Sequence record: MK295203
Strand: one strand, 5' to 3'
Source of the DNA: Escherichia phage vB_EcoM_005
Length of the DNA: 64,000 bases
Shown here: positions 2,847-62,614 of the stretch, piece after piece
Layout: each line of letters opens with the position of its first letter
How positions within the stretch are numbered: the stretch's first letter is position 1
Program-made: the position numbers and the translations under genes
The notes under the pieces: generated by a model
What the model was told of the DNA's origin: nothing
The model's database searches: none
Seen by the model: the letters and a program-made list of their open reading frames with translations, nothing else

Positions 2847-3563
2847 TTAAGAAATTCGTGATGCTGCGATTGCAGACAGGTCCGCGAAGGACAGGGTAGG
2901 CTTAGCGCCTTTTTCTTCAACTGCTTCTGAAATGTAATTCAGTGCCGCAGCATCGTCTACATTTTTATTTATAGCGGCTTCGGTGATTGGGTTTTCAACG
3001 TCAGTTTCAGTCAGGTCTTTAGTTGCTTCCGTAACAGCAACTTCACGCTGTACGTAATTAATATACGCGTCGCGCTTACCAACTTCTTCGAACAGACGAG
3101 CGGTTTCATCTTTCTGCTCTTGGAGTTCTTCTTCCATTTCAGCAACAACATCTACTGCTTCTTCTGGAACAACCACATTGTGTTCAACAAACAGTTCTTT
3201 CATACCCATCAACATGGATTCGAACAGTTCGGCTTTAATACCTTTATCAACAGCCAGCTGGTTTTCAGCCATCCATTCTTTAGCAACGTGGTCAAGGAAA
3301 CGACCGGCAGCTTCTTGGATTTTCTTATCGGCTTTTTCTTCAGCTTCTTCTTTATTTTTCTCTACTTCTTCTTCCGCTTTTTCAGCGATTTTAGCGATGT
3401 GAGATTCAGCCAGTTTCACGGCGTGTTGCTTGACGGTAGCTTCGAATACAGTGCCGAAAGTTTCTTTTGCTTCCGGAGAAATATTAACTGATTCGAAAAT
3501 ACTATCAAGAGCAACGGAAGCATCAATATTCTGTGCTTCGGCGATCAGTTGTTCTTTAAGCAT
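2847..3563 (-). CDS. 22: prohead scaffold protein gp22
   Basis: 238-aa acidic coiled-coil protein MLKEQLIAEAQ...; position between 21 and 23. Confidence 0.85.
   Translation of the reverse strand: MLKEQLIAEAQNIDASVALDSIFESVNISPEAKETFGTVFEATVKQHAVKLAESHIAKIAEKAEEEVEKNKEEAEEKADKKIQEAAGRFLDHVAKEWMAENQLAVDKGIKAELFESMLMGMKELFVEHNVVVPEEAVDVVAEMEEELQEQKDETARLFEEVGKRDAYINYVQREVAVTEATKDLTETDVENPITEAAINKNVDDAAALNYISEAVEEKGAKPTLSFADLSAIAASRIS
2966..2973 (-). promoter_or_regulatory. possible late promoter TATAAATA
   Basis: Forward TATTTATA = minus-strand TATAAATA, about 140 nt upstream of gene 23 start. Confidence 0.3.
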
Positions 3564-6557: not shown

Positions 6558-7139
6558 TCATTCATTTTCATGTTTGTGATAACGTGTTATAGCCGAACGA
6601 GTTGATTCAACACCACAGATAGGGCAAATCATCCTTGGCTGATTAATCTTTTTGCCTTTAGCCGGATGTTCTTTACCAAACATCGGATTACCTTCACCAG
6701 ACATAGCTTTGGCTTGGTCTGGTCGCTTACGTCCTTTTAGAGCTTTAGAATGTTCAGGCCTCTTTTTACCTAACCTACAATCTCTTTGTAGCTGTTTGGC
6801 ATGTTCACTCATTGGAATCCCTTTACGAGACATTCCAAAGAACCCGTCAGGCTGAGCTAATGACATATTTATATAGTTTTTAGATTTAACTACATTATAC
6901 TTTATTTGAAGCTCTTTCTCAGCTATACGAGCTTCTTTATCGGTTTCAAATAAAGATAAAATTCTGGTTTTGAAAAGGTGCGGATTTTCTTTACGTTCTA
7001 GATTCCAAATCTTTTTATATGCTTGGGATAATACAGAACCATTATATCCTTCTTTGAGAATCCTTTCAACGTATGTTGAGCCAATATAACGACGGGGTAG
7101 TTTAGACCCCGTGTATATGGTTAAGTAAGTACAATACAT
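6558..7139 (-). CDS. GIY-YIG homing endonuclease with C-terminal zinc finger
   Basis: TIYTGSKLPRRYIGSTY N-terminal motifs, repeated basic H-x-AK segments, C-terminal CPICG...H; free-standing between genes 20 and 19. Confidence 0.7.
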   Translation of the reverse strand: MYCTYLTIYTGSKLPRRYIGSTYVERILKEGYNGSVLSQAYKKIWNLERKENPHLFKTRILSLFETDKEARIAEKELQIKYNVVKSKNYINMSLAQPDGFFGMSRKGIPMSEHAKQLQRDCRLGKKRPEHSKALKGRKRPDQAKAMSGEGNPMFGKEHPAKGKKINQPRMICPICGVESTRSAITRYHKHENE

Positions 7140-7169
7140 TCTAAACTCCTTGACTTCATTGTTTGAATG

Positions 7170-7177
7170 TATTTATA
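7170..7177 (-). promoter_or_regulatory. late promoter TATAAATA for HEG 6558..7139
   Basis: Minus-strand TATAAATA about 30 nt upstream of the HEG ATG. Confidence 0.4.
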
Positions 7178-7206
7178 CTATCATAATTTGCTATAAAAGT
7201 AAAAAC

Positions 7207-7698: not shown

Positions 7699-7701
7699 AA
7701 G

Positions 7702-8385
7702 TTAGTGTTTCCTATCATATTCTTCAATTAAATGGAATAGCATATCTAAATCTATACTATTTTTAGAATCTTTACTTCGATTCTTTTCCCAAGGAATCAT
7801 TTCTAGATTGCAAATGTGTCCTATTATTTCGGGAGGGACGCCATTTTCAAATCCATATTTGATAGATACCCTATGGTCTAATTGATAAGCTCCTTTAACA
7901 CCACATATCCCGCTTAGATGTCTATTTGGTAGATTATCAACTTCTTCTTTAAAAGTCTTATTAGTAAAAGACCTCACTGAATAATAATATTTATTACGTT
8001 CAGATTTGTTAGGATTCCATCTTCCGTTTTTAGGTCCTGAACAAGCTTCAATCTTTATACCTTTTTTAGACTTAGAAATTTTAGGCCCTTTGGTTTTACG
8101 GATTTTTATGCCTTCATCAGAATTCCAATATTCTTTTCTTGTTTCTGAATAGACTTCCCAACGATGCTCTTTACAGAACTTAGAATTGGTTTCATTAAGT
8201 CGCCCTTTTGTTACAGTATAATAAATGCCACATTTATCACATTTACACGTAACAGCCATTTTTCCAGGACAGTCTTCTAATTTTATTAAATGGGAGCTTC
8301 CACTTTTAACTTGATATCCAAGATTTTTAAAAGCAGAAACATTGCGATTCGTTATAGGTATTTCAAATAGAGTATTAGTAATCAT
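7702..8385 (-). CDS. HNH homing endonuclease (mob-like)
   Basis: C-terminal YQLDHRVSIKYGFENG...HICNLEMIPWEKNRSKD HNH motif, cysteine-rich N-terminus; inserted between genes 19 and 18. Confidence 0.7.
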   Translation of the reverse strand: MITNTLFEIPITNRNVSAFKNLGYQVKSGSSHLIKLEDCPGKMAVTCKCDKCGIYYTVTKGRLNETNSKFCKEHRWEVYSETRKEYWNSDEGIKIRKTKGPKISKSKKGIKIEACSGPKNGRWNPNKSERNKYYYSVRSFTNKTFKEEVDNLPNRHLSGICGVKGAYQLDHRVSIKYGFENGVPPEIIGHICNLEMIPWEKNRSKDSKNSIDLDMLFHLIEEYDRKH

Positions 8386-8407
8386 ACTTATATTTATATA
8401 CCAGAAA

Positions 8408-8436
8408 GTCGCAGGATTGCGCCTGCGACGTTTTTA
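8408..8436. terminator. terminator-like hairpin in 18/19 intergenic region
   Basis: GTCGCAGG-ATTGCG-CCTGCGAC hairpin followed by GTTTTTA; strand assignment ambiguous. Confidence 0.35.
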
Positions 8437-13608: not shown

Positions 13609-14195
13609 TACTCACCTCTCATTTTACAATTATCATTATGCCAACGATTTATAAGATGGTATCCTATCATCTTGTGGCAATGTGGACACTCTACTTTTCT
13701 CTTTGGTACACCTGTTTGGGCTTGTCCAAAGGATACGGTATGTTCTGCTGAAAGCTTTTTGCCTTTGTGGGTTTCACTGGCTCTCTTTTTAGCATACTCT
13801 CCGTGATGTTTACCAAAAAATGGATTCAATTCACCTATACGAGTTTTACCCCAGGCTGATTTAACCCTCTTCATTTCTATACGGGCTTCTTCGTATTTTA
13901 TTTTTAATTCTTCTTCGGATAAATTTAAATTTCTACGTTCAGAACTACTAAACATAATCCAAAAGGCTAAAATCATTTTAGGGTCTTTTGTTTTTGCTAA
14001 GATTGCATGCGCCTCTAGATGGTCTAAAACATCTATAGAAACTATATTTTCCGGCGTGTTTTCGTATTCTGGAAATAAAGACCTAGGGAGAATATGATGT
14101 TTTTCGGTGTATTCTGTTTTAGGTGGCTTGGAGACCACCGCCAGATATTCATCTGTCAAATCCCCAAGCCATAATCCTACTTTTTCTTCTATCAT
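13608..14195 (-). CDS. HNH homing endonuclease
   Basis: HHILPRSLFPEYENTPENIVSIDVLDHLEAH HNH motif and C-terminal CPHCH...C zinc finger; inserted between genes 15 and 14. Confidence 0.7.
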   Translation of the reverse strand: MIEEKVGLWLGDLTDEYLAVVSKPPKTEYTEKHHILPRSLFPEYENTPENIVSIDVLDHLEAHAILAKTKDPKMILAFWIMFSSSERRNLNLSEEELKIKYEEARIEMKRVKSAWGKTRIGELNPFFGKHHGEYAKKRASETHKGKKLSAEHTVSFGQAQTGVPKRKVECPHCHKMIGYHLINRWHNDNCKMRGE

Positions 14196-14204
14196 AGAAG
14201 TTAT

Positions 14205-14908: not shown

Positions 14909-15521
14909 AACTCCACTCCTTCCATTTAGGTTTATCATTCTTTATTCTATTAATAACTGCGCTTTTGACTATACCAAAATACTCGGCGCATTCTTTACCT
15001 GTCGAGAATACCATTTCTCCGACTCTAACTGCTCTGGCCGCAGGATTTTTACTACCGGTAAAATCTGGGTGTTTCACACGCGTCCACATTAATGCGGTAG
15101 ATTCTTTTCTACGCTTTAGCCCTTCTTCAGTCCATTCTCTTGATTTTGCCGCCTCTGACATTCTTTTTCTTGATTCTATAGAACGGGTTTTACCTATATT
15201 AGGGTTATCTTTAGGATTGTAATAAGAAGGACCACCTTGTCCTCCTTTTACCAAATTAACACACTGAGCAAAATCTTCTTTAAGAATATCGACTAAAAGT
15301 TCTTCGGCTTCCTTTAATAATTCCGGATTACCGAAATCTTTCGACCATAATACCTGTTTTATACAGTTTCGTCCATATTTTTTCTTAGCATTCGAAATAT
15401 ACGTTCCTGAGCCAACGTATGAATCCAGCTTTGGATTAGATTTATCCGAATGTCTTTTACCGCCATAAATTTTTAATCCGTCCGACGTTTCAAACTCAGT
15501 CACGTATAATCTATAAAACAT
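14895..15521 (-). CDS. GIY-YIG homing endonuclease inserted between genes 13 and 14
   Basis: [10 protein letters not shown]...YVGSG motifs, C-terminal HTH; 3' end overlaps gene 14 start; ORF track fuses it to an upstream gene-14 fragment (14895..15668). Confidence 0.75.
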
Positions 15522-15568
15522 AATTATCCAATTAAAATAGGTGTTGGTGGGTCGAGTAAATCTAATTC
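15519..15568. repeat. 50-bp direct repeat, copy 1 (copy of gene 13 3' end)
   Basis: Identical 50-mer CATAATTATCCAATTAAAATAGGTGTTGGTGGGTCGAGTAAATCTAATTC also at 15666-15715. Confidence 0.85.
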
Positions 15569-15572
15569 GAAA

Positions 15573-16893: not shown

Positions 16894-19107
16894 TTATGGT
16901 GTTGGGGTTAAAGTCACAAAATCTGACAATAATACCCATGCATTATCAACAAGAACATACGGAAGTCCATCAGCAACTGGAGCCGCTGGCGGACGTTTAC
17001 CAAGTTCAGTTTCTAGTGCAGTGATTTTAGCTTCGGCTGCAGTTAAACGAGTAGTTAATCCTGCCACTTTACCTGATTCAACTTCAACAACACCTAAACG
17101 GGTATCAATAGCCGCTACTTTATCGGATTCACCCTTAACTTCAGCCAATCCAGATTTAAGTGTTACTATATCACCTTCTGCAGTGCCAAGGCGGGTATTA
17201 ATACCTGCTACCTTATCAGATTCGACTTTAACAGCGGCAAGTCCTGTTTCTAAAGTGGTGATTTTACCTTCTGCTGTAGTAACTCTAGTTGTTAAAGGAG
17301 CAATTTTGGCAGTATCAACTTTAATTGCGTTAATTTCACCTTCAGTAGAAGAAACTCGGCCAGTTAAAGAAACGATATCGCCTTTGTTCTTGGTGATATC
17401 CGCTTTAATAGGGGTCAACTGGTTTTCTAAATCGGTTACATCTAAAGCCAGTGCAGTAACATCGTCATCAGTAGTATCTGTCTTAGTTTCAAGAGCAGCA
17501 ATTTTACCGTTAATGGTTACATCACTAGATTCAAGTGCTGTTAAACGACCGTCCTGTTCAACGTCTTTAGCCTTTATAGTAACGATATCTGCTTTAATCT
17601 CACCAACCGAAGTGTTTAATGCACCGGTACGAGTATCAAGAGAAGAAATTGAGGTATCATTATCATCGACTCTAGAAGTTAAAGCGGCCACTTTACCGTT
17701 GGTAACAACCAAATCAGCCTTAACAGATTCTATTTCCGTAGAGCTATTGAGAACCTCTGTCCAAGTAGCATTGCGGCGTGCATAAAGCTTACCATCGGAA
17801 GGGGCATCATTCAACTTACCTAACATCTGGGTTTCTAAAGAAGTAACCGCGTTAATAAGACCACGTTCTTCTACAGTAGTACCGTTAGGGTTGGTCCCGT
17901 CAACCTTATTGGTGAGTTTAAGTAAAGTACCCTTAATACCGGATTGGTTATTTCCAATTTCTACTTGAATATCCTGGATAGATGAAGTAGATTGGTTTGC
18001 TTGGATAATAACGTCATTTAAACGCTTATTAATGGTCCCAGCTGCCGGAGATACTTCACTACCTAAACGGCGGTTGATATCAGTAACTTGGAAACGTAAG
18101 CCATCACTTGAACTAACACCCACTATGGTTTTAAGGTCATTTACATCGGTGCGAAGACCGCTTAAACGTCCATTAATAGAAGTAGGAGTTGATTCAGAAC
18201 CTATTTGGATTTCAATTGATGTTACACGAGGTTTTAAATCAACGTTGACTGAATTTTCTAGGGTAAGAGTTTTGCTTTCTAAAGTAGTTACTCGGTCCTT
18301 TATAGGCATACCGGAGAAATCAATATTGGTCTTAATTTCGTCGATAGACGTATTAAAATTAATTGCCGCCGTTTCTAATGCTGAAATTCGGGTATAAGCA
18401 GGTTGTTTACCTACCGTATCAGAATGCGGGCCAAGTTCAGCACGAATTTCATTTAATTTAATACCTAATTGCCCGACGTCAGAATCTTCATAATTCCTTT
18501 CAAGGGTATCAATGCGAAGACGATGGTCGACCAATTCAGTGGTATTATCAATGATGCGACGTTTCATACCGGTGGCTTCGCTGGTTTCACCTGGAGGCAA
18601 TGGATTGCCATTTATATCCTGGTTTTCATAATGACCTATTTCGGTTTTAAGAAGAACAATATTTTCACGTACAGTTAAATATGGGCCATCTTGTAAAGGG
18701 TCATGGTAACCAACGTCTTCACGCAAGTAATCAAAATTGGTGGTTAACTCATCCAATTTTCCTGTTGTTTCTGAAGTAACCTTTTTAAGGTCTACGATAT
18801 CAACACGGTTTTTCTCAATTTGTTGGATGACGGAAATATCCGTAGCCATTTCTAAGGCATCATTGATATTATTAACGTTTTCTACCAGTTCGTTAACTTT
18901 ATCTGCGGTTTTCAAATCATTCGCATCAAGAGCTTCAACGTTTTTCTGAACTCCTAAAGCAGCAGCGTTCAAATTACCTTCATTGCCGTATTTTGTTTTT
19001 GCTGCAGACATACAATCACCCTCGCGTATCCATTGGATACGCTTTTGAGGAGCATCAGGTACGCCGTCAACAAATGGTAACTCACTAAGTTCCAATTTGT
19101 TAATCAT
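16894..19107 (-). CDS. wac: fibritin (whisker antigen control) with extended coiled coil
   Basis: MINKLELSELPFVDGVPDAPQ... N-terminus like T4 wac, long repetitive coiled-coil segments; 737 aa versus 487 in T4 as recalled. Confidence 0.85.
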   Translation of the reverse strand: MINKLELSELPFVDGVPDAPQKRIQWIREGDCMSAAKTKYGNEGNLNAAALGVQKNVEALDANDLKTADKVNELVENVNNINDALEMATDISVIQQIEKNRVDIVDLKKVTSETTGKLDELTTNFDYLREDVGYHDPLQDGPYLTVRENIVLLKTEIGHYENQDINGNPLPPGETSEATGMKRRIIDNTTELVDHRLRIDTLERNYEDSDVGQLGIKLNEIRAELGPHSDTVGKQPAYTRISALETAAINFNTSIDEIKTNIDFSGMPIKDRVTTLESKTLTLENSVNVDLKPRVTSIEIQIGSESTPTSINGRLSGLRTDVNDLKTIVGVSSSDGLRFQVTDINRRLGSEVSPAAGTINKRLNDVIIQANQSTSSIQDIQVEIGNNQSGIKGTLLKLTNKVDGTNPNGTTVEERGLINAVTSLETQMLGKLNDAPSDGKLYARRNATWTEVLNSSTEIESVKADLVVTNGKVAALTSRVDDNDTSISSLDTRTGALNTSVGEIKADIVTIKAKDVEQDGRLTALESSDVTINGKIAALETKTDTTDDDVTALALDVTDLENQLTPIKADITKNKGDIVSLTGRVSSTEGEINAIKVDTAKIAPLTTRVTTAEGKITTLETGLAAVKVESDKVAGINTRLGTAEGDIVTLKSGLAEVKGESDKVAAIDTRLGVVEVESGKVAGLTTRLTAAEAKITALETELGKRPPAAPVADGLPYVLVDNAWVLLSDFVTLTPTP

Positions 19108-29423: not shown

Positions 29424-29980
29424 TATGGCCTCGCATATACATATTCTCTTAATTGGTTAGCCCATTTGCTCCAATTACCCACTATAACTTTGGTATAAAC
29501 CTTAGTAAGGGTTTTTCTTACCGGAGCAGGAGGTGGGTCTGTTTCGCTACCGGCTCTAGAATTACTACCGCCTGAGTTCCCTGTATCACCTCCTGACGAC
29601 TCTTCCTGAAAGTCATAGATTAATGTGACCGTATAAGAAAAAGTCTTCTGGAGATTGCTAGGGGCTTTCCAGAGGTATAATTGAGTGCTCTTGTCCTCTG
29701 GTAAATCTTTCCATGAACCGGCAGTTTTAAATTCATCACCTAATCGGTATTTTAATGCATCCTCAGAGAAACCAAATACTGATTCGTAAGTTCCATATAA
29801 ATGAGCCCCATCAACTGTGATGCCTTCTGTCGGCTCATATTCTGTTATATTTATTTCGACTAATGTTTCGTTTGTTTCTAATTGAGCGGTAAACGTAACA
29901 TCGATAGAGCTTCCTTCCATGGAATCTCCTAAATCAGTGCTCATCGGTAGGATATTAGCCAATGTCAATCCTCGAACCAT
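29423..29980 (-). CDS. 5.1: gene 5.1-like protein (start uncertain)
   Basis: ORF between gene 5 and 5.4; track start at 30004 is TTG; candidate ATGs at 29980 and 29944. Confidence 0.45.
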
Positions 29981-31376
29981 CAATAGTATATTGACCGGAT
30001 GCAATTGAACTCATAGTCGACATAGTTTCAGACCAATTGCCTGCAACAGTCATATCAACGTTTCCATTTACGGACCATTTAACGTTTCCATTTACTGTAT
30101 AGTCATGGTTGCCTTCAACTAATGTTTTTGCATCGCCTTTAACAGTTATATCAGCATTACCCTCGACAAGAATTGTTACGTTTCCTTTAACAATAAGGGT
30201 CCCATCACCTTCTACGGTTTTAGTTTCATTACCACGAATATGATATCCGTCTGCTACTGTCTTGGAAGTTTTGCGACCATCAGGAGCAACTTCTTCATAA
30301 CTACCTGTAGGATGGATTAAACGATAACGTTCTTGCCCTGGAGTGTTATCAAATTCTTGGATATGCCCGCCTTCAGTCTGCATGGTTTGGACATATGGGT
30401 ATTCACCTTTATAACTAGAATCAGGCTCTTTAAAAAGAATCCTTGTATCTTCTGGAGTCCATGGGTCGGCAGGGTCTGAATTTTTAGGGGCTGCAAAGGT
30501 TTGAATCATTCTATACGAACGCCCTTTAAATGACCTTTCTTTAGGGGCCATAATACCGTATGATTCCATGTTACCTGTAAGGATAATCATTGATACCCTT
30601 GATGCACGACCTTTAGTTTGGTTAAACCACACAGAATCACGAGCGGCATCAAATGCTTTCTTATAATCTCCGGCTAACATTGCAGCGAGCATGGTTCTAA
30701 ATTTAGCCAGTCCACCCAATCCCATTTGGAAAGCCATGTTTTCAAGAGCCATTTGTCTTGAACGGTTTTCTTTATTGTAAACTGGCCCTACAACACTATG
30801 CCGACCTATATCGCTTTGGACTTTTTTAAGGTCTTCTTGGAATAATTTAGAAGCCTCGTCCATTGATATTGCACCTGGGTTACCTTTAACTTCTCGTCCT
30901 ACCTGATTAGATAATATTTTGTTTATTCGGTTCATATCTCTAATAGGTTGCGGTGTGATAAGGTGGCCTATACCTATAGTAGGATAACCTTCGGTGTCCC
31001 AATAGTTAATACCCACATCAGTGTTTGCATCTTGTATTACGTTAGAAGTGGCATCATATCCAACTTCACCGCCTCGGTTTAGTGCTGCAGCATCATTACC
31101 TAAATAAAGTGGATATTGACCTGTTGGGTCGCTAAAACCTTCATTAGGATTAGCCTTTTGTCTTGAAGCGGAACCATATGTACCGAGGACAAGCCCGTTT
31201 AATTTCCACTTATCAAGAAAGTGCCCATAAGTACGAAGGCCTTTTACAGGACCTTGGACCTTTTCGTAAGGATGCAAGCCCCAGACACGAACTCGAACGC
31301 GTCCTTGTTGGAGTGGGTCCATACGGTCTTCAACCACCCCTACGAACCAACTGACATTATCAGACATGTTAATCAT
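29955..31376 (-). CDS. 5: baseplate hub / tail-associated lysozyme gp5
   Basis: N-terminal ...WFVGVVEDRMDPLQQGRVRVRV, central T4-lysozyme-like domain (GINYWDTEGYPTIGIGHLI), C-terminal VxGNxxxxV beta-helix repeats. Confidence 0.9.
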   Translation of the reverse strand: MINMSDNVSWFVGVVEDRMDPLQQGRVRVRVWGLHPYEKVQGPVKGLRTYGHFLDKWKLNGLVLGTYGSASRQKANPNEGFSDPTGQYPLYLGNDAAALNRGGEVGYDATSNVIQDANTDVGINYWDTEGYPTIGIGHLITPQPIRDMNRINKILSNQVGREVKGNPGAISMDEASKLFQEDLKKVQSDIGRHSVVGPVYNKENRSRQMALENMAFQMGLGGLAKFRTMLAAMLAGDYKKAFDAARDSVWFNQTKGRASRVSMIILTGNMESYGIMAPKERSFKGRSYRMIQTFAAPKNSDPADPWTPEDTRILFKEPDSSYKGEYPYVQTMQTEGGHIQEFDNTPGQERYRLIHPTGSYEEVAPDGRKTSKTVADGYHIRGNETKTVEGDGTLIVKGNVTILVEGNADITVKGDAKTLVEGNHDYTVNGNVKWSVNGNVDMTVAGNWSETMSTMSSIASGQYTIDGSRIDIG

Positions 31377-35494: not shown

Positions 35495-35719
35495 ATGAAA
35501 ACTTATCAAGAATTTATTACCGAAGCTAAAAGACATGAAGATGAACTGCCAATTGTTACAAAAACCTTTGATGGCACACTGGCTGATTTTAAAAAAGTCC
35601 CTAGTGATAAGCTTGCTAAATTGACTGGCTCTATCAATGAAAAAGGTGGCAAGGTCACGTTTTCTGCTGGCGGCATAGCCAATCTTAAAAAACTTTTGAA
35701 AGCCGCTGGCGCTGAATAA
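35495..35719 (+). CDS. internal protein with capsid-targeting leader (ipI position)
   Basis: Starts MKTYQEFITEA; 74 aa; located after 57B where T4 has ipI. Confidence 0.7.
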   Translation: MKTYQEFITEAKRHEDELPIVTKTFDGTLADFKKVPSDKLAKLTGSINEKGGKVTFSAGGIANLKKLLKAAGAE

Positions 35720-42954: not shown

Positions 42955-43818
42955 ATGATGTTAGTTATTGGTTCTCGTGCACTGCACCACGCTGGTCTGA
43001 TTGAAAGTAAGCATATCGAAAATTCTGATTGGGATTTCATTGCCGACCAAGGTTCATGGAACCATTTTAAAGCTCGGATGTTTGGTGCCCATGTTTCTGT
43101 GGATAATCCTGATGTCCAGGCTTTTAAATGCATGTACAACGGTAAAGAAACCTATTTTGAAGCATATATCGTTCGTGCTCTGACTAACGTACGAGAAATT
43201 ACCGGCGAGCTTCAAGACGAAGATTTCACCTCAAGTTATCGTCTCCTGAAATATGCCGAAAATCATATTAAAAAGGACCGTCTTACAGGTTTCTATTGGG
43301 CTACGCCTGATATCTGTCTGGCTATCAAAACCTCTCATCGTTTCCTGAAGAATAATCCTTTCTTCTTGAAAACTATGTCCCACATCAAATACCTTCGTAA
43401 TAAAGGTACCACCTTGAATGAAGAACTCCAGGAAATTATGCTGCAACGTCAAAAAGAAACGTTGAGCTATTCCCATCCTAAATTGGATGTAAACAAATCA
43501 TCGTTCTTTAATGATACCATGGAGAAGTTCGAGGCTTTGCCTGAAGCTATTAAATTGGCTGGTGTGTATGAAGAAACCTGTGTCCTGGCACTAGAACGTT
43601 CACAGGTTCCTAATGACTTCAATATTTCACCATCATTAAGTTTCTATATGGCTCTTGAGAAAGTGTGTACCTCAATCACTTCAGGTTGGTTCCGCACTTA
43701 TGCATGGGAAAACTACCAAGCTGTGGTTAATATGTACAAGACTTTAGGTGAAAGTGACTACATTGAACGATTTAAACGTAATCAACATCTTATTAAACCT
43801 TTCAAAAAGGCTGAGTAA
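42955..43818 (+). CDS. hypothetical protein (287 aa), possible nucleotidyltransferase-like N-terminus
   Basis: Internal ATGATG start after GAGGAAAA; N-terminal LVIGSRALHH...SDWDF loosely resembles a GS...DxD motif. Confidence 0.5.
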   Translation: MMLVIGSRALHHAGLIESKHIENSDWDFIADQGSWNHFKARMFGAHVSVDNPDVQAFKCMYNGKETYFEAYIVRALTNVREITGELQDEDFTSSYRLLKYAENHIKKDRLTGFYWATPDICLAIKTSHRFLKNNPFFLKTMSHIKYLRNKGTTLNEELQEIMLQRQKETLSYSHPKLDVNKSSFFNDTMEKFEALPEAIKLAGVYEETCVLALERSQVPNDFNISPSLSFYMALEKVCTSITSGWFRTYAWENYQAVVNMYKTLGESDYIERFKRNQHLIKPFKKAE

Positions 43819-44468
43819 TGGGACGGCCTCTAAAAGATTTAACCGGACAGGTTATAAATGGTATTAAATTTTTATCGGTGGCCTATAAAGCCACCGGATC
43901 GCCAACCAAGTGGCTTTTATTGTGCCATTGCGGTGAAGAATTCGTTACCACCGCCTCTAGAATAAAAACAGGAAAAACAAAATCATGCGGCTGTGAAAGA
44001 TACCATTATTCCTTTATAAAGAATAGGTATACATATTCCTCATATTCTGCTATGATTGCTAGATGTACAGACCCTAAACATAAAGCCTATCCCGCCTACG
44101 GTGGTAATGGTATAGTTGTTTGTGACGAGTGGCTTCCTAAAGGAAAGAAAGGGTATTTAAAATTTGTCGAGGATATGGGCGAGAGACCTAAAGGGACTTC
44201 AATAAATCGAATAGGTTCTGTTAAAAGGTATAGCAAAGAAACTTGTGAGTGGGCTCCATTTACAATGCAATCATTTGACCAAAGAACGCGTCATGATTCA
44301 CCGGGTCCTATTTCAGGAGTTGTATATAGAAAAGATAGAAATAAATGGGTAGCTTCTATAACAGTAGAAGGCGAAGCCATAGGGCTATATTATGGTGATA
44401 CTGAAAGCGAAGCGATAGAGGCTAGAAAACAAGCTGAACTTAAATATTTTGGAAGATTTAAGTCATAA
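43818..44468 (+). CDS. AP2-domain DNA-binding protein (homing-endonuclease-like)
   Basis: C-terminal ...GVVYRKDRNKWVASITVEGEAIGLYYGDTESEAIEARKQAELKYFG AP2-type motif; Cys-rich N-terminus. Confidence 0.55.
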   Translation: MGRPLKDLTGQVINGIKFLSVAYKATGSPTKWLLLCHCGEEFVTTASRIKTGKTKSCGCERYHYSFIKNRYTYSSYSAMIARCTDPKHKAYPAYGGNGIVVCDEWLPKGKKGYLKFVEDMGERPKGTSINRIGSVKRYSKETCEWAPFTMQSFDQRTRHDSPGPISGVVYRKDRNKWVASITVEGEAIGLYYGDTESEAIEARKQAELKYFGRFKS

Positions 44469-44473
44469 AAGTT

Positions 44474-44766: not shown

Positions 44767-45357
44767 ATGAACGGTCCAAAAACTTTTAATTCTCAAGCTC
44801 GTGCAGTCGGTGGTTTTGCTCAAGATATCAGTAATGATATGATTAAAAATGAGCCTATGTTCTTTAATTGCGATGCTTATTTTGCTCATAAACACGGCGG
44901 TCCTATTACTCGTAGCTTTATTGAAAACCTGCCTGAAGATTGGCAATGTGGCCCTGATATTGTATTTGATTCCCGTGTACACATGTTAATGCCTGGCTGG
45001 TACCCTGCAATTCCAGGCTTCCACCATGATGATGTACCACGTCCGGATATTCCGGTCGGCCAACACTTTATTACCGCAGGGCAGCCTGATTATGATAATC
45101 CTCGTTACCATTCTGAACATATTCTTGGTCTTGTTAACGCTGGAATTGAGTCCAATGAATTAACCAAGTGGGATGCTCCTGACCGCACGTTGCTCCAGTT
45201 TGATTGGCAGACGTGGCATACCGGTTCTCGTGCAGTAAGTAATGGTTGGCGCTGGTTTGGTCGTGTCTCTCGTAATACTGACCGTGTTAAAAAGATTACT
45301 AATGAAATCCGTGTTAATGCTCAAGTTTATCTGGAATTCCCTATGGAGGGCTGGTAA
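44767..45357 (+). CDS. hypothetical protein (196 aa), possible Fe/2OG-oxygenase-like
   Basis: FHHDD...WHTGSR...RWFGRVSR resembles HxD...H...R arrangement; unverified. Confidence 0.5.
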   Translation: MNGPKTFNSQARAVGGFAQDISNDMIKNEPMFFNCDAYFAHKHGGPITRSFIENLPEDWQCGPDIVFDSRVHMLMPGWYPAIPGFHHDDVPRPDIPVGQHFITAGQPDYDNPRYHSEHILGLVNAGIESNELTKWDAPDRTLLQFDWQTWHTGSRAVSNGWRWFGRVSRNTDRVKKITNEIRVNAQVYLEFPMEGW

Positions 45358-45944: not shown

Positions 45945-46177
45945 GCATTGCAATTTATATTAAATCTGAGTCATGTGATTCTTATCTGTATTCCTATGAT
46001 ACCGGAACATCAGAAGAGAAAATTAAAGAAGACTTAGAAAGCGATATGGATATGTTCTGTCCTATTGGTGACTATATGCTTCAAGTGTCTGATAGTGAAA
46101 GTCCATCATCAGAAAATAGACTTCAAATTATTATGCAAGATATTTTTAAACAATCATGGGAACGAGACGATGAGTAA
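45941..46177 (+). CDS. hypothetical acidic protein (78 aa)
   Basis: ATGA overlap with previous gene. Confidence 0.45.
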   Translation: MSIAIYIKSESCDSYLYSYDTGTSEEKIKEDLESDMDMFCPIGDYMLQVSDSESPSSENRLQIIMQDIFKQSWERDDE

Positions 46178-46619
46178 GAAAGCTAAGGAATTATCGGCAG
46201 GTATTTTGTTCATGACCGTTGATAAAGAACTAGTTATGGGTCGTGTAACAGGCTCTCGTAATCCAGAGAATATGCGTCATAAATGGGACATTCCTAAGGG
46301 TCATGTCGAACCAGGCGAAGAGCCTATTCAAGCGGCAATGCGCGAAACCGAAGAAGAGATTGGATTCACAGCATACGATCCTGCGTTCCTGAAAGACCTA
46401 GGTGAGTTCAAATATTCAAGCAATAAGAATCTACATCTGTTCTTATATACAGTGCCTGTGGAACACGAGCAGTTCAAGGATTGCAAATGTACGGCTTACC
46501 ATACGTTCCCTGATGGTCGTACTATTCCTGAATTCGATGCGTTCGCTTTGATTAAACGTCCGCAATGGGAATATGTCATGGGCCCGTCGATGTTTAAGGT
46601 TTTAGATTCGCTCTTTTGA
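46170..46619 (+). CDS. nudE: Nudix hydrolase NudE
   Basis: Nudix box GHVEPGEEPIQAAMRETEEEIGF; directly upstream of e as in T4. Confidence 0.85.
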   Translation: MSKKAKELSAGILFMTVDKELVMGRVTGSRNPENMRHKWDIPKGHVEPGEEPIQAAMRETEEEIGFTAYDPAFLKDLGEFKYSSNKNLHLFLYTVPVEHEQFKDCKCTAYHTFPDGRTIPEFDAFALIKRPQWEYVMGPSMFKVLDSLF

Positions 46620-46649
46620 TATAAATACCTCCTATACTCAGGAGGTATT
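46620..46649 (+). promoter_or_regulatory. late promoter TATAAATA plus RBS-sequestering hairpin of gene e
   Basis: TATAAATA 46620-46627; hairpin ACCTCC-TATACTCA-GGAGGT (46627-46646) contains the e Shine-Dalgarno. Confidence 0.6.
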
Positions 46650-47081
46650 ATGGATATTTTTGATATGTTACGTCAAGACGAAGGTCTTGATTTAAATCTT
46701 TATAAAGACACTGAAGGTTATTGGACTATTGGTATTGGCCAATTGATTACTAAGAACCCTTCTAAAGATGTTGCTCGTGCTGAACTTGATAAGCTTATGG
46801 GTCGAGTTTGTAATGGTCGTATTACTATGGCTGAAGCTGAACAACTCTTTAACCGATCGGTTGAAAATGCTCGTAGAGCTATTCTGCGTAATCCTAAATT
46901 GAAACCTGTTTATGATGTACTGGACGAAGTTCGTCGTTGTGCTTTAATTAACATGGTCTTCCAAATGGGTGAAGCAGGCGTAGCAGGGTTCACTAACTCT
47001 TTACGTATGCTCCAACAGAAACGTTGGAACGATGCGGCAGTTAACCTGGTTTATCGCAGAGAATGTAATTCCTGCATCTAA
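46650..47081 (+). CDS. e: lysozyme (endolysin) e, C-terminally truncated
   Basis: [33 protein letters not shown]... matches T4 lysozyme to ...AAVNL then diverges and stops (143 aa versus 164). Confidence 0.85.
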
Positions 47082-47094
47082 AGAACTTTTGGCG

Positions 47095-47430
47095 ATGTTT
47101 GAATCTGAAGAGTTCACTGAAGAACTGAATGAGAACCTGACCCAGGCCACTCCTCAGGTTATTCGCGTTCGTAACGCTCTGCAGACAGGCATGCAGGCCC
47201 GCGTATCTAAGACTATGAAGCTGGCATTCACCACTTCTAAAAATGAAGACTATGGCGACGGTATTGCAATGAACACTGGACAGTATTATGTCGAGTGGAA
47301 TGGTGAAACCGGTACGGCTAAGATTCGTCAGACACGTGCAGCGGGTGGTAAAATGTTAGACCTTAAACTGAACGTTAAAGAGAAAGACGTCGCGGCTTTG
47401 TTCAAGAATTGGATGAAAACCTACAAATAA
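47095..47430 (+). CDS. hypothetical protein (111 aa) ending in a stray MKTYK leader fragment
   Basis: ORF replaces the 3' end of e; last codons ATGAAAACCTACAAATAA look like the start of an internal-protein gene. Confidence 0.4.
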   Translation: MFESEEFTEELNENLTQATPQVIRVRNALQTGMQARVSKTMKLAFTTSKNEDYGDGIAMNTGQYYVEWNGETGTAKIRQTRAAGGKMLDLKLNVKEKDVAALFKNWMKTYK

Positions 47431-47512: not shown

Positions 47513-48109
47513 ATGAAAACGTATAAAGAATTTATCACCGAAGCTTCTGTAGGAAAGGTCCAAGGCATTAATAAAGATGAGTGGACTTACCGAGGAAACG
47601 GCGTTGACAAAATAGGAAACGGCTTTGACGCTAAAACAGCTCCTATTGAACGGTATTTAGCTACAAAGGCTTCCGATTTTAAAGCTTTCGCTTGGGAAGG
47701 ACTTCGCTGGCGTAACGACCTAAATATTGAAGCTGATGGGCTTAAATTTGGCCATATCCAAGATGTTGTTGCTAGTAACTTGGATGCAGCTTTTATTAAA
47801 GCCGACGGTGACCTTCGTCGCTGGAATTTAAAACTGTTCTCTAAACAGAAAGGTCCGGTATTTGTACCTAAAGCAGGTAAATGGACTATTGATAATAAAT
47901 TGGCTAAAGCGGTTAACTTCGCTGGTCTTGAATTTGCCAAGCACAAATCAGCATGGAAAGGTCTTGATACAATGGCTTTCCGTAAAGAATTTGCTGATGT
48001 TATGACTAAAGCCGGCTTTAAGGCAGAACTAGATACCTCTAAAGGTACGTTTAAAGACGCTAATATTCAGTACGCTTACGCCGTTGCTAATGCAGCCCGT
48101 GGTAATTAA
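47513..48109 (+). CDS. ipIII: internal protein III
   Basis: MKTYKEFITEASVGKVQGINKDEWTYRGNGVDKIGNGFD... matches T4 IPIII as recalled; 198 aa. Confidence 0.8.
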   Translation: MKTYKEFITEASVGKVQGINKDEWTYRGNGVDKIGNGFDAKTAPIERYLATKASDFKAFAWEGLRWRNDLNIEADGLKFGHIQDVVASNLDAAFIKADGDLRRWNLKLFSKQKGPVFVPKAGKWTIDNKLAKAVNFAGLEFAKHKSAWKGLDTMAFRKEFADVMTKAGFKAELDTSKGTFKDANIQYAYAVANAARGN

Positions 48110-48137: not shown

Positions 48138-48440
48138 ATGAAAACCTATCAAGAATTTATCACTGAAGCCCGCGTAACCGCAGGTAAATTAGAAGCCGCT
48201 GTAAATAAAAAGGCCCATTCATTTCATGATTTGTCAGATAAAGACCGTAAGAAACTTGTAAGCCTTTATATTGACAAAGAGCGTATTCTCGCTCTCCCGG
48301 GCGCTAATGAAGGTAAACAGGCCAAGCCTTTGAATTCTGTCGAAAAGAAAATTGATAACTTTGCTTCTAAGTTTGGTATGTCTATGGATGACCTTCAGCA
48401 AGCGGCTACCGAAGCAGCTAAAGCAATTAAAGGTAAATAA
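48138..48440 (+). CDS. ipII: internal protein II
   Basis: MKTYQEFITEARVTAGKLEAAVNKKAHSFHDL...; 100 aa; T4 order e-ipIII-ipII-denV. Confidence 0.8.
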   Translation: MKTYQEFITEARVTAGKLEAAVNKKAHSFHDLSDKDRKKLVSLYIDKERILALPGANEGKQAKPLNSVEKKIDNFASKFGMSMDDLQQAATEAAKAIKGK

Positions 48441-51821: not shown

Positions 51822-52079
51822 ATGATTAAGCAGATGACTATAGCGCTTATGTTGATCGCTCCGGGAGTATTAGCGTCACAAGTTGATGATAGCAATAATT
51901 CAATTGTCGAGTATGCTACCCGTACAGTCCGAATGAAAGAGAAAACTCTTTCTAAAAGATACGAGCAACGTCTAAACGTTACTGAATGTATTCCATCTGA
52001 TAAAAAGTACAAAGAAATGTGCGCGTCTATGGTAGACAGACTCGTTGATTCTTACAATCGAGGATTAAACTCTAAATGA
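51822..52079 (+). CDS. small secreted protein (85 aa)
   Basis: Signal-peptide-like N-terminus MIKQMTIALMLIAPGVLAS. Confidence 0.5.
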   Translation: MIKQMTIALMLIAPGVLASQVDDSNNSIVEYATRTVRMKEKTLSKRYEQRLNVTECIPSDKKYKEMCASMVDRLVDSYNRGLNSK

Positions 52080-62449: not shown

Positions 62450-62614
62450 ATGGATGTGATGCCGGAAAAAGGTGTATTTGATGATGAGAAGATTGCTGAA
62501 CTCCTGGCTTCTCTTGGACGTGAATCTCAGGTAGGTTTGACTATGCCTCAGGTATTTGCTCCGGACGGAACTTCTATTGGTGGCTTTGACCAATTGCGAG
62601 CATATTTCAAATGA
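62450..62614 (+). CDS. nrdC: thioredoxin NrdC, C-terminal fragment only
   Basis: MDVMPEKGVFDDEKIAELLASLGRESQVGLTMPQVFAPDGTSIGGFDQLRAYFK matches the C-terminal part of T4 NrdC; N-terminal CxxC region absent. Confidence 0.6.
   Translation: MDVMPEKGVFDDEKIAELLASLGRESQVGLTMPQVFAPDGTSIGGFDQLRAYFK

Follow-up and report, generated by a model that had tools for sequence, protein, structure and literature searches.

A truncated lysozyme gene e in Escherichia phage vB_EcoM_005 is very probably a by-product of recurrent 99-bp losses from the sequence copy, downstream of an intact promoter-hairpin switch

Gene e of Escherichia phage vB_EcoM_005 starts as a T4-type lysozyme but stops after 143 amino acids, and a second reading frame lies where the rest of the enzyme is expected. 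Does this phage make a shortened lysozyme with a new C-terminus, or has a piece been lost from the sequence in which the gene is read? We analyzed the locus within a stretch of 64,000 nucleotides of sequence record MK295203, hereafter called the window, and compared it with related phages and with public contigs.

The window belongs to a JS98-like T-even phage of the genus Dhakavirus. No identical record is present in the phage collection and, among the best-covering records, the top identity over 22 kb around e is approximately 96% (phages AnYang and C6). The order of the genes in the region is that of T4, namely nudE, e, an ORF of 132 codons, ipIII, an ipII-type gene and denV (Table 1).

Table 1. 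Features of the e region and positions of the net 99-bp gaps in the window
Feature	Position	Strand	Basis
nudE, Nudix hydrolase, upstream of e	46170..46619	+	Pfam NUDIX 55.5 bits; homologous annotation (nudE/nudix hydrolase) in AnYang and JS98
Late promoter element, T4-type, TATAAATA	46620..46627	+	Sequence; overlaps the first 4 nt of the hairpin 5' arm
Hairpin 5' arm, AATACCTCCT	46624..46633	+	Fold of 46615-46655
Hairpin 3' arm, AGGAGGTATT, contains the e Shine-Dalgarno sequence GGAGGT	46640..46649	+	Fold
Gene e, T4-type endolysin, codons 1-133 and first base of codon 134	46650..47049	+	Matches to E33, T4, Pfam and PDB
Junction, 99 bp absent	47049..47050	.	Alignments with AnYang and JS98; E33 carries the exact 99-nt block
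False e tail, (V)YRRECNSCI-stop	47050..47081	+	Codons 7-17 of the neighbouring gene in the e frame
Downstream gene, codons 7-132 and stop, PHROG 15461, candidate internal head protein	47050..47430	+	phrog_15461, E = 1.5e-91
ipIII, internal head protein III, intact	47513..48109	+	phrog_5341 internal virion protein, E = 2e-114; ipIII annotation in relatives
ipII-type internal head protein, intact	48138..48440	+	phrog_7857, E = 5e-54
denV	ends 48917		
Net 99-bp gaps, sites 1-9	near 3004, 21018, 23298, 23984, 27472, 31005, 31231, 45143, 47050		Comparison with AnYang
Net 99-bp gaps, sites 10-18	near 51928, 54139, 55016, 55753, 55870, 56614, 59013, 60542, 61884		Comparison with AnYang

The part of e that precedes the junction is authentic. 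Within the reading frame at 46650-47081, residues 1-133 are 100% identical to the endolysin of phage E33 and align without gaps to T4 lysozyme, with 98 of 133 residues identical (74%) and the catalytic Glu11, Asp20 and Thr26 all kept. The Pfam family Phage_lysozyme (PF00959) is matched with 45.6 bits, against a cut-off of 22.3, over profile positions 2-103 of 125, and T4 lysozyme in the PDB with E = 4e-63. The match ends at residue 133. Past this point, 10 other residues and a stop codon take the place of 31 residues in T4, and the complete C-terminal domain (residues 134-164) is absent from the window. A preliminary description of this DNA had reported a T4-like lysozyme running into a 10-residue tail, 143 amino acids long instead of 164, and the alignment to T4 confirms it. 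Residues 134-164 form the helices at the C-terminal end of the large domain in T4 lysozyme, and an enzyme cut at residue 133 would be inactive, judging from the T4 structure. Our search of the literature on C-terminal truncation of T4 lysozyme returned nothing usable.

We then asked what separates this locus from its counterparts. In the local alignments to AnYang, E33 and JS98, one clear-cut difference stands out, a block of 99 bp absent from the window at 47049|47050, between collinear flanks; apart from the block, E33 has 100% identity to the 221 nt of the window that span the junction. The block begins with the second base of codon 134 of e, closes with codon 6 of the downstream gene, and encodes the last 31 residues of lysozyme, the stop codon and the first six codons of the neighbour (MKTYNE). 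In AnYang and E33 the e product has 164 residues, the last 31 of which are clearly homologous to the T4 C-terminus, and the next gene, which lies in the +1 frame, overlaps the end of e by 14 nt. Since the block spans this overlap, the e frame of the window enters the neighbouring gene out of frame and stops after 10 codons. Loss of the same block leaves the neighbour without its start codon and N-terminal signal. Full-length e is the ancestral state because the block encodes a homologue of T4 residues 134-164. Insertions in the relatives, instead of a loss in the window, were considered and rejected, as the block encodes the conserved C-terminus of T4 lysozyme.

The junction appears to be private to this sequence. 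Both flanks are found in 23 public phage records; all of them measure 320 bp across the region, against 221 in the window, and none carries the junction. The 99 bp and a lysozyme of 164 amino acids are likewise present on two Logan contigs that encode a nudE or ipII protein exactly as in the window; the exact match of the ipII-type protein lies on one of them, SRR35032046_7484. Exact look-ups of the nudE and ipII proteins returned relatives only, all with lysozymes of 164 or 162 amino acids, and no record of the 143-residue product was found by exact protein look-up. The exact ipIII protein and a 28-mer specific to the window likewise gave no record. The junction sequence was not found in IMG/VR, metagenome contigs or GTDB genomes, and the position 47049|47050 has no microhomology of the kind expected of replication-slippage deletions. 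The missing 99 nt and 31 residues are also absent from other frames and from the remainder of the window, as searched by blastn and tblastn. With the missing residues as query, tblastn gives a single hit, in the lysozyme domain of gp5, which is a paralogue, and blastn with the block itself finds nothing beyond the ATGAAAACTTA-type sequences with which other internal-protein genes start. The full-length C-terminus is seen in every relative. The proposal in the preliminary description that a different ORF had replaced it does not hold, as this ORF is the normal neighbour of a full-length e in at least 23 related phages.

The loss at e is not isolated. Compared with AnYang, the window shows 26 gaps of 95-180 bp, and in 18 of these the net number of bases missing from the window is exactly 99. 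Comparison with phage UGJNEcP3 returned 13 junctions of net 99 bp, 12 of them at the same window coordinates as in AnYang and one additional near 62455; sites 55016 and 61884 fall in stretches that do not align cleanly with this phage, and four others are outside the part compared. The three junctions nearest to e recur in six relatives; those at 45143, 47050 and about 51929 were found again in E33, C6 and Logan contig SRR21412980, and those at 45143 and 47050 also in Logan contig SRR35032046, the end of which falls short of the third junction. For 13 of the 18 junctions, the window has 1-3 unmatched bases where AnYang has 100-102 nt, and at 45143 a single unmatched base is present with respect to all six relatives. 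Most events thus look like the exchange of 100 nt for 1 nt and not like plain deletions. The missing blocks have an ordinary composition, and share no motif, repeat or base-composition bias.

Several of the losses affect genes of known function. In tblastn alignments, exactly 33 amino acids are missing in frame from gp22, gp6, gp8, gp9, ORF63, vs and NrdC.11, and gp5 (29958-31376, minus strand), which combines baseplate hub and tail lysozyme, lacks 107 residues compared with AnYang gp5; two gaps of 99 bp and one of 123 bp are located in it. In T4, the head and baseplate proteins gp22, gp5, gp6, gp8 and gp9 are essential. The same net loss of 99 bp thus affects 17 or more sites besides e, some of them in genes that T4 cannot do without, which speaks for a defect in the sequence and not in the phage. 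Most of the other 99-bp gaps lie within a single reading frame, with the product merely shortened. Only at e does a gap show up as a truncation, because this one happens to cover two overlapping genes that are read in different frames. The remaining gaps with respect to AnYang are of other sizes (97, 102, 106, 123, 126, 133, 147 and 174 bp). Six of these, of 133, 147, 97, 106, 123 and 102 bp, lie near 1527, 9414, 16370, 20589, 30240 and 43521, respectively. Several of the six likewise show one unmatched base where the flanks meet, and the six may have the same cause as the 99-bp losses or be natural indels.

Our main reading, to which we assign a probability of approximately 0.93, is that this copy of the sequence is defective, and that the 143-residue lysozyme follows from the defect and is not a property of the phage. 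According to this reading, 99 bp, or possibly 100 bp swapped for 1 bp, would have been lost at 47049|47050. The fixed-size losses would derive from a computational step, which may have been the assembly, the joining of contigs, or the removal or collapse of masked stretches of 100 nt. What is seen in the window is a fixed size that recurs at unrelated sites, and we know of no natural process that removes an equal number of bases at about twenty such sites. If the genes known to be essential in T4 are essential here as well, losses of this kind would also be incompatible with viability. Three observations weigh against an artefact. The nearest public relative is only about 96% identical to the window, so that the relatives testify to the 99 bp in the real phage indirectly. 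Gaps of other sizes do occur, so that the rule of 99 bp is not perfectly uniform. In addition, 99 is a multiple of three and the genes mostly remain open, which is not expected from a purely random artefact; a fixed block size, however, explains this last point equally well. In practical terms, the window holds at least 18 fixed-size gaps, and genes of unusual length, fusions of ORFs or absent domains in it need to be checked against relatives.

A real deletion of 99 bp in a viable phage is the alternative that survives best, although we consider it very improbable. The phage would then produce a truncated and probably inactive endolysin, the neighbouring protein would no longer be packaged, and lysis would follow another route, for instance by way of the lysozyme domain of gp5, altered by a compensating mutation as happens in suppressors of T4 e mutants. 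The deletion is indeed present in the sequence as given, and T4 e mutants can reportedly be rescued by spackle or gene 5 mutations (Emrich 1968; Kao & McClain 1980), which we count in its favour. Yet the same net size is missing at 17 or more other sites, at the cost of 33 amino acids in each of the essential gp22, gp6, gp8 and gp9, and gp5, on which any compensation would depend, is itself without 107 amino acids. The junction is moreover found in no relative and in no public contig searched, and is devoid of microhomology. It is therefore hard to believe in a living Dhakavirus that has a 143-residue endolysin without the last three helices and an internal-protein homologue without capsid-targeting signal, and that lyses its host without intact gpe. 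Such a phage would be a natural endolysin knock-out among the T-even phages, and moderately interesting for lysis biology, but the evidence is strongly against it.

The preliminary description had seen the C-terminus as replaced; on that reading, a rearrangement or the insertion of a cassette would have laid a foreign ORF across the 3' end of the gene, so that lysozyme acquired a new C-terminus. Internal-protein genes do move as cassettes in this region, and the 132-codon gene itself follows e in AnYang and E33, follows ipIII in JS98 and is absent in Bp7. However, wherever this ORF follows e, its start lies within the final 14 nt of e and the lysozyme is intact at 164 amino acids. The ORF of the window has in turn lost its own first six codons, which an insertion would not cause, and the 10-residue tail is nothing but the neighbour read out of frame. 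The alignments to AnYang, JS98 and E33 refute the insertion, and we regard it as extremely unlikely. A C-terminus supplied from another place or by recoding, through a split gene, a frameshift or translational bypassing such as that for which T4 is known in gene 60 (a subject that appears in the reference list of PMC3014915), has a negligible probability; a search for the 31 missing residues in all frames and in the rest of the window found no sequence that encodes them, and refutes this reading within the window.

The missing block also accounts for the form of the downstream gene. The ORF listed for it starts at an ATG at 47032 and ends at 47430, and its 132 amino acids consist of MRQLTW followed by FIAENV and the rest of the protein. 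Residues 7-132 are identical to the E33 protein. In the relatives the gene likewise encodes 132 amino acids, beginning with MKTYNEFIAE, and overlaps e by 14 nt. An ORF of this length is still listed in the window because the neighbour's frame stays open upstream of the junction as far as the accidental ATG at 47032. The preliminary description had placed an ORF at 47095..47430; its end is correct, while the ATG at 47095 is an internal methionine of the longer ORF. Both ATGs are apparent starts only, the true start having been lost in the gap.

To characterize this gene, we relied on the relatives. PHROG 15461 is represented in 48 phage records, from phages of Escherichia, Salmonella, Klebsiella, Serratia and Erwinia, and each covers at least 99% of the 132 amino acids (residues 1-132 in 43 records and 1-131 in five). 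The protein is annotated as hypothetical in all 48, among them ORF058 of AnYang (L001 2632-3030), the E33 protein (L004 2692-3090) and orf114 of JS98 (L002 3363-3761). In the internal head proteins IPI, IPII and IPIII of T-even phages, the capsid targeting sequence at the N-terminus reads MKTYQEFIAE (Rao & Black 2010, PMC3012670). An N-terminal MKTYxEFIxE together with a protease site of the form (L/I)xE is found in the AnYang and E33 proteins and is missing from the window, where the first six codons are gone. With this N-terminus and its changing position within the ip cluster, the 132-residue MKTYNEFIAE protein is likely to be an internal head protein that has escaped annotation; it is also a candidate for an anti-defence role. 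This is a modest point on the relatives and not on the window. In the window, capsid-targeting-type starts of the form ATGAAAACNTAYNNNGARTTYAT open six plus-strand genes, at 35495, 35721, 37775, 47513, 48138 and 48960, where none is expected by chance. Adding the gene beheaded at 47050, the phage has at least seven internal-protein-like genes.

Upstream of the junction, the control region of e is preserved. The late promoter motif TATAAATA occurs 18 times in the window, compared to 7.8 +/- 2.6 expected, and the copy at 46620 occupies the position of the first of the two late promoters of T4 e. Next to it, AAUACCUCCU pairs with AGGAGGUAUU in a perfect stem of 10 bp, which has the pairing of ACCTCC with GGAGGT as its core, encloses a loop of 6 nt and ends one base before the e ATG at 46650. 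The fold has a free energy of -14.1 kcal/mol (z = -3.7), and none of 200 shuffles folds equally well. When the RNA begins in the loop, at 46634, the stem is gone and the free energy is -3.4 kcal/mol (z = 0). Promoter, stem and loop are the same base for base in AnYang and E33; JS98 differs in loop and spacing, and T4 has a homologous stem with one G.U pair. The late promoter and the hairpin sequestering the Shine-Dalgarno sequence, both proposed in the preliminary description, are thus borne out by sequence, fold and homology to T4.

Early transcripts that read through from nudE would contain both arms of the hairpin and keep the Shine-Dalgarno sequence hidden. Late transcripts would start a few bases past TATAAATA, if the start sites are those of T4, and would be translated since they lack the 5' arm. 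The placement of the promoter (46620-46627) on the arm (46624-46633) is consistent with such relief, with the start site taken from T4. A hairpin that sequesters the Shine-Dalgarno sequence of e, and is relieved in transcripts from the late promoter, was shown for T4 by McPheeters et al. 1986, as stated in the review by Uzan & Miller (2010, PMC3014915), which also reports this arrangement in related T4-type phages. The switch is therefore real, conserved and previously described for T4-type phages; it is a textbook mechanism, and its conservation in a JS98-like phage adds nothing new.

Besides the gaps, the window differs from AnYang by additional sequence. Six insertions of 590-735 bp are located at 667-1334, 6564-7204, 7699-8432, 13609-14200, 14911-15569 and 43809-44473, each with one ORF of about 190-220 amino acids and each between or beside structural genes. 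These ORFs look like free-standing homing endonuclease genes, with weak support from Pfam: three of the six match SegE GIY-YIG, GIY-YIG and NUMOD3, of which one NUMOD3 match alone reaches the cut-off, and the other three have no Pfam hit. A further 678 bp (17038-17715) lie inside the fibritin gene wac and add more coiled-coil-like repeats (heptads of the TALE/TRLG type).

The pattern of losses can be compared with that left by assembly or masking artefacts. It shares with them a constant block size, irregular positions, the lack of a sequence signature, the involvement of essential genes and the absence from all relatives, and differs from them in a few gaps of other sizes, between 97 and 174 bp. 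The product of e compares directly with T4 lysozyme (gpe, glycoside hydrolase family 24, PF00959, PDB 2LZM and others): it has 74% identity over residues 1-133 and the same catalytic trio, and lacks, as written in the window, residues 134-164, which the relatives have.

The control of e closely resembles that of T4. In both phages TATAAATA overlaps the 5' arm of the hairpin, the 3' arm contains GGAGGT and ends at the AUG, the arms are nearly equal (AUACCUCC versus AUACCUUC), and nudE lies upstream on the same strand. T4, however, has two late promoters, with the second TATAAATA in the loop of the hairpin (L003 2499-2540, minus strand), whereas the window (46620-46649) and its close relatives have the first only; the stem of the window is fully Watson-Crick, with G-C where T4 has G.U. 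As for the T-even internal proteins, the downstream gene differs from them in being annotated as hypothetical only and, in the window, in having lost its first six codons. It resembles them in starting with MKTYNEFIAE in all close relatives, in lying in the ipIII-ipII cluster and in shifting its position between phages, as other internal-protein genes do.
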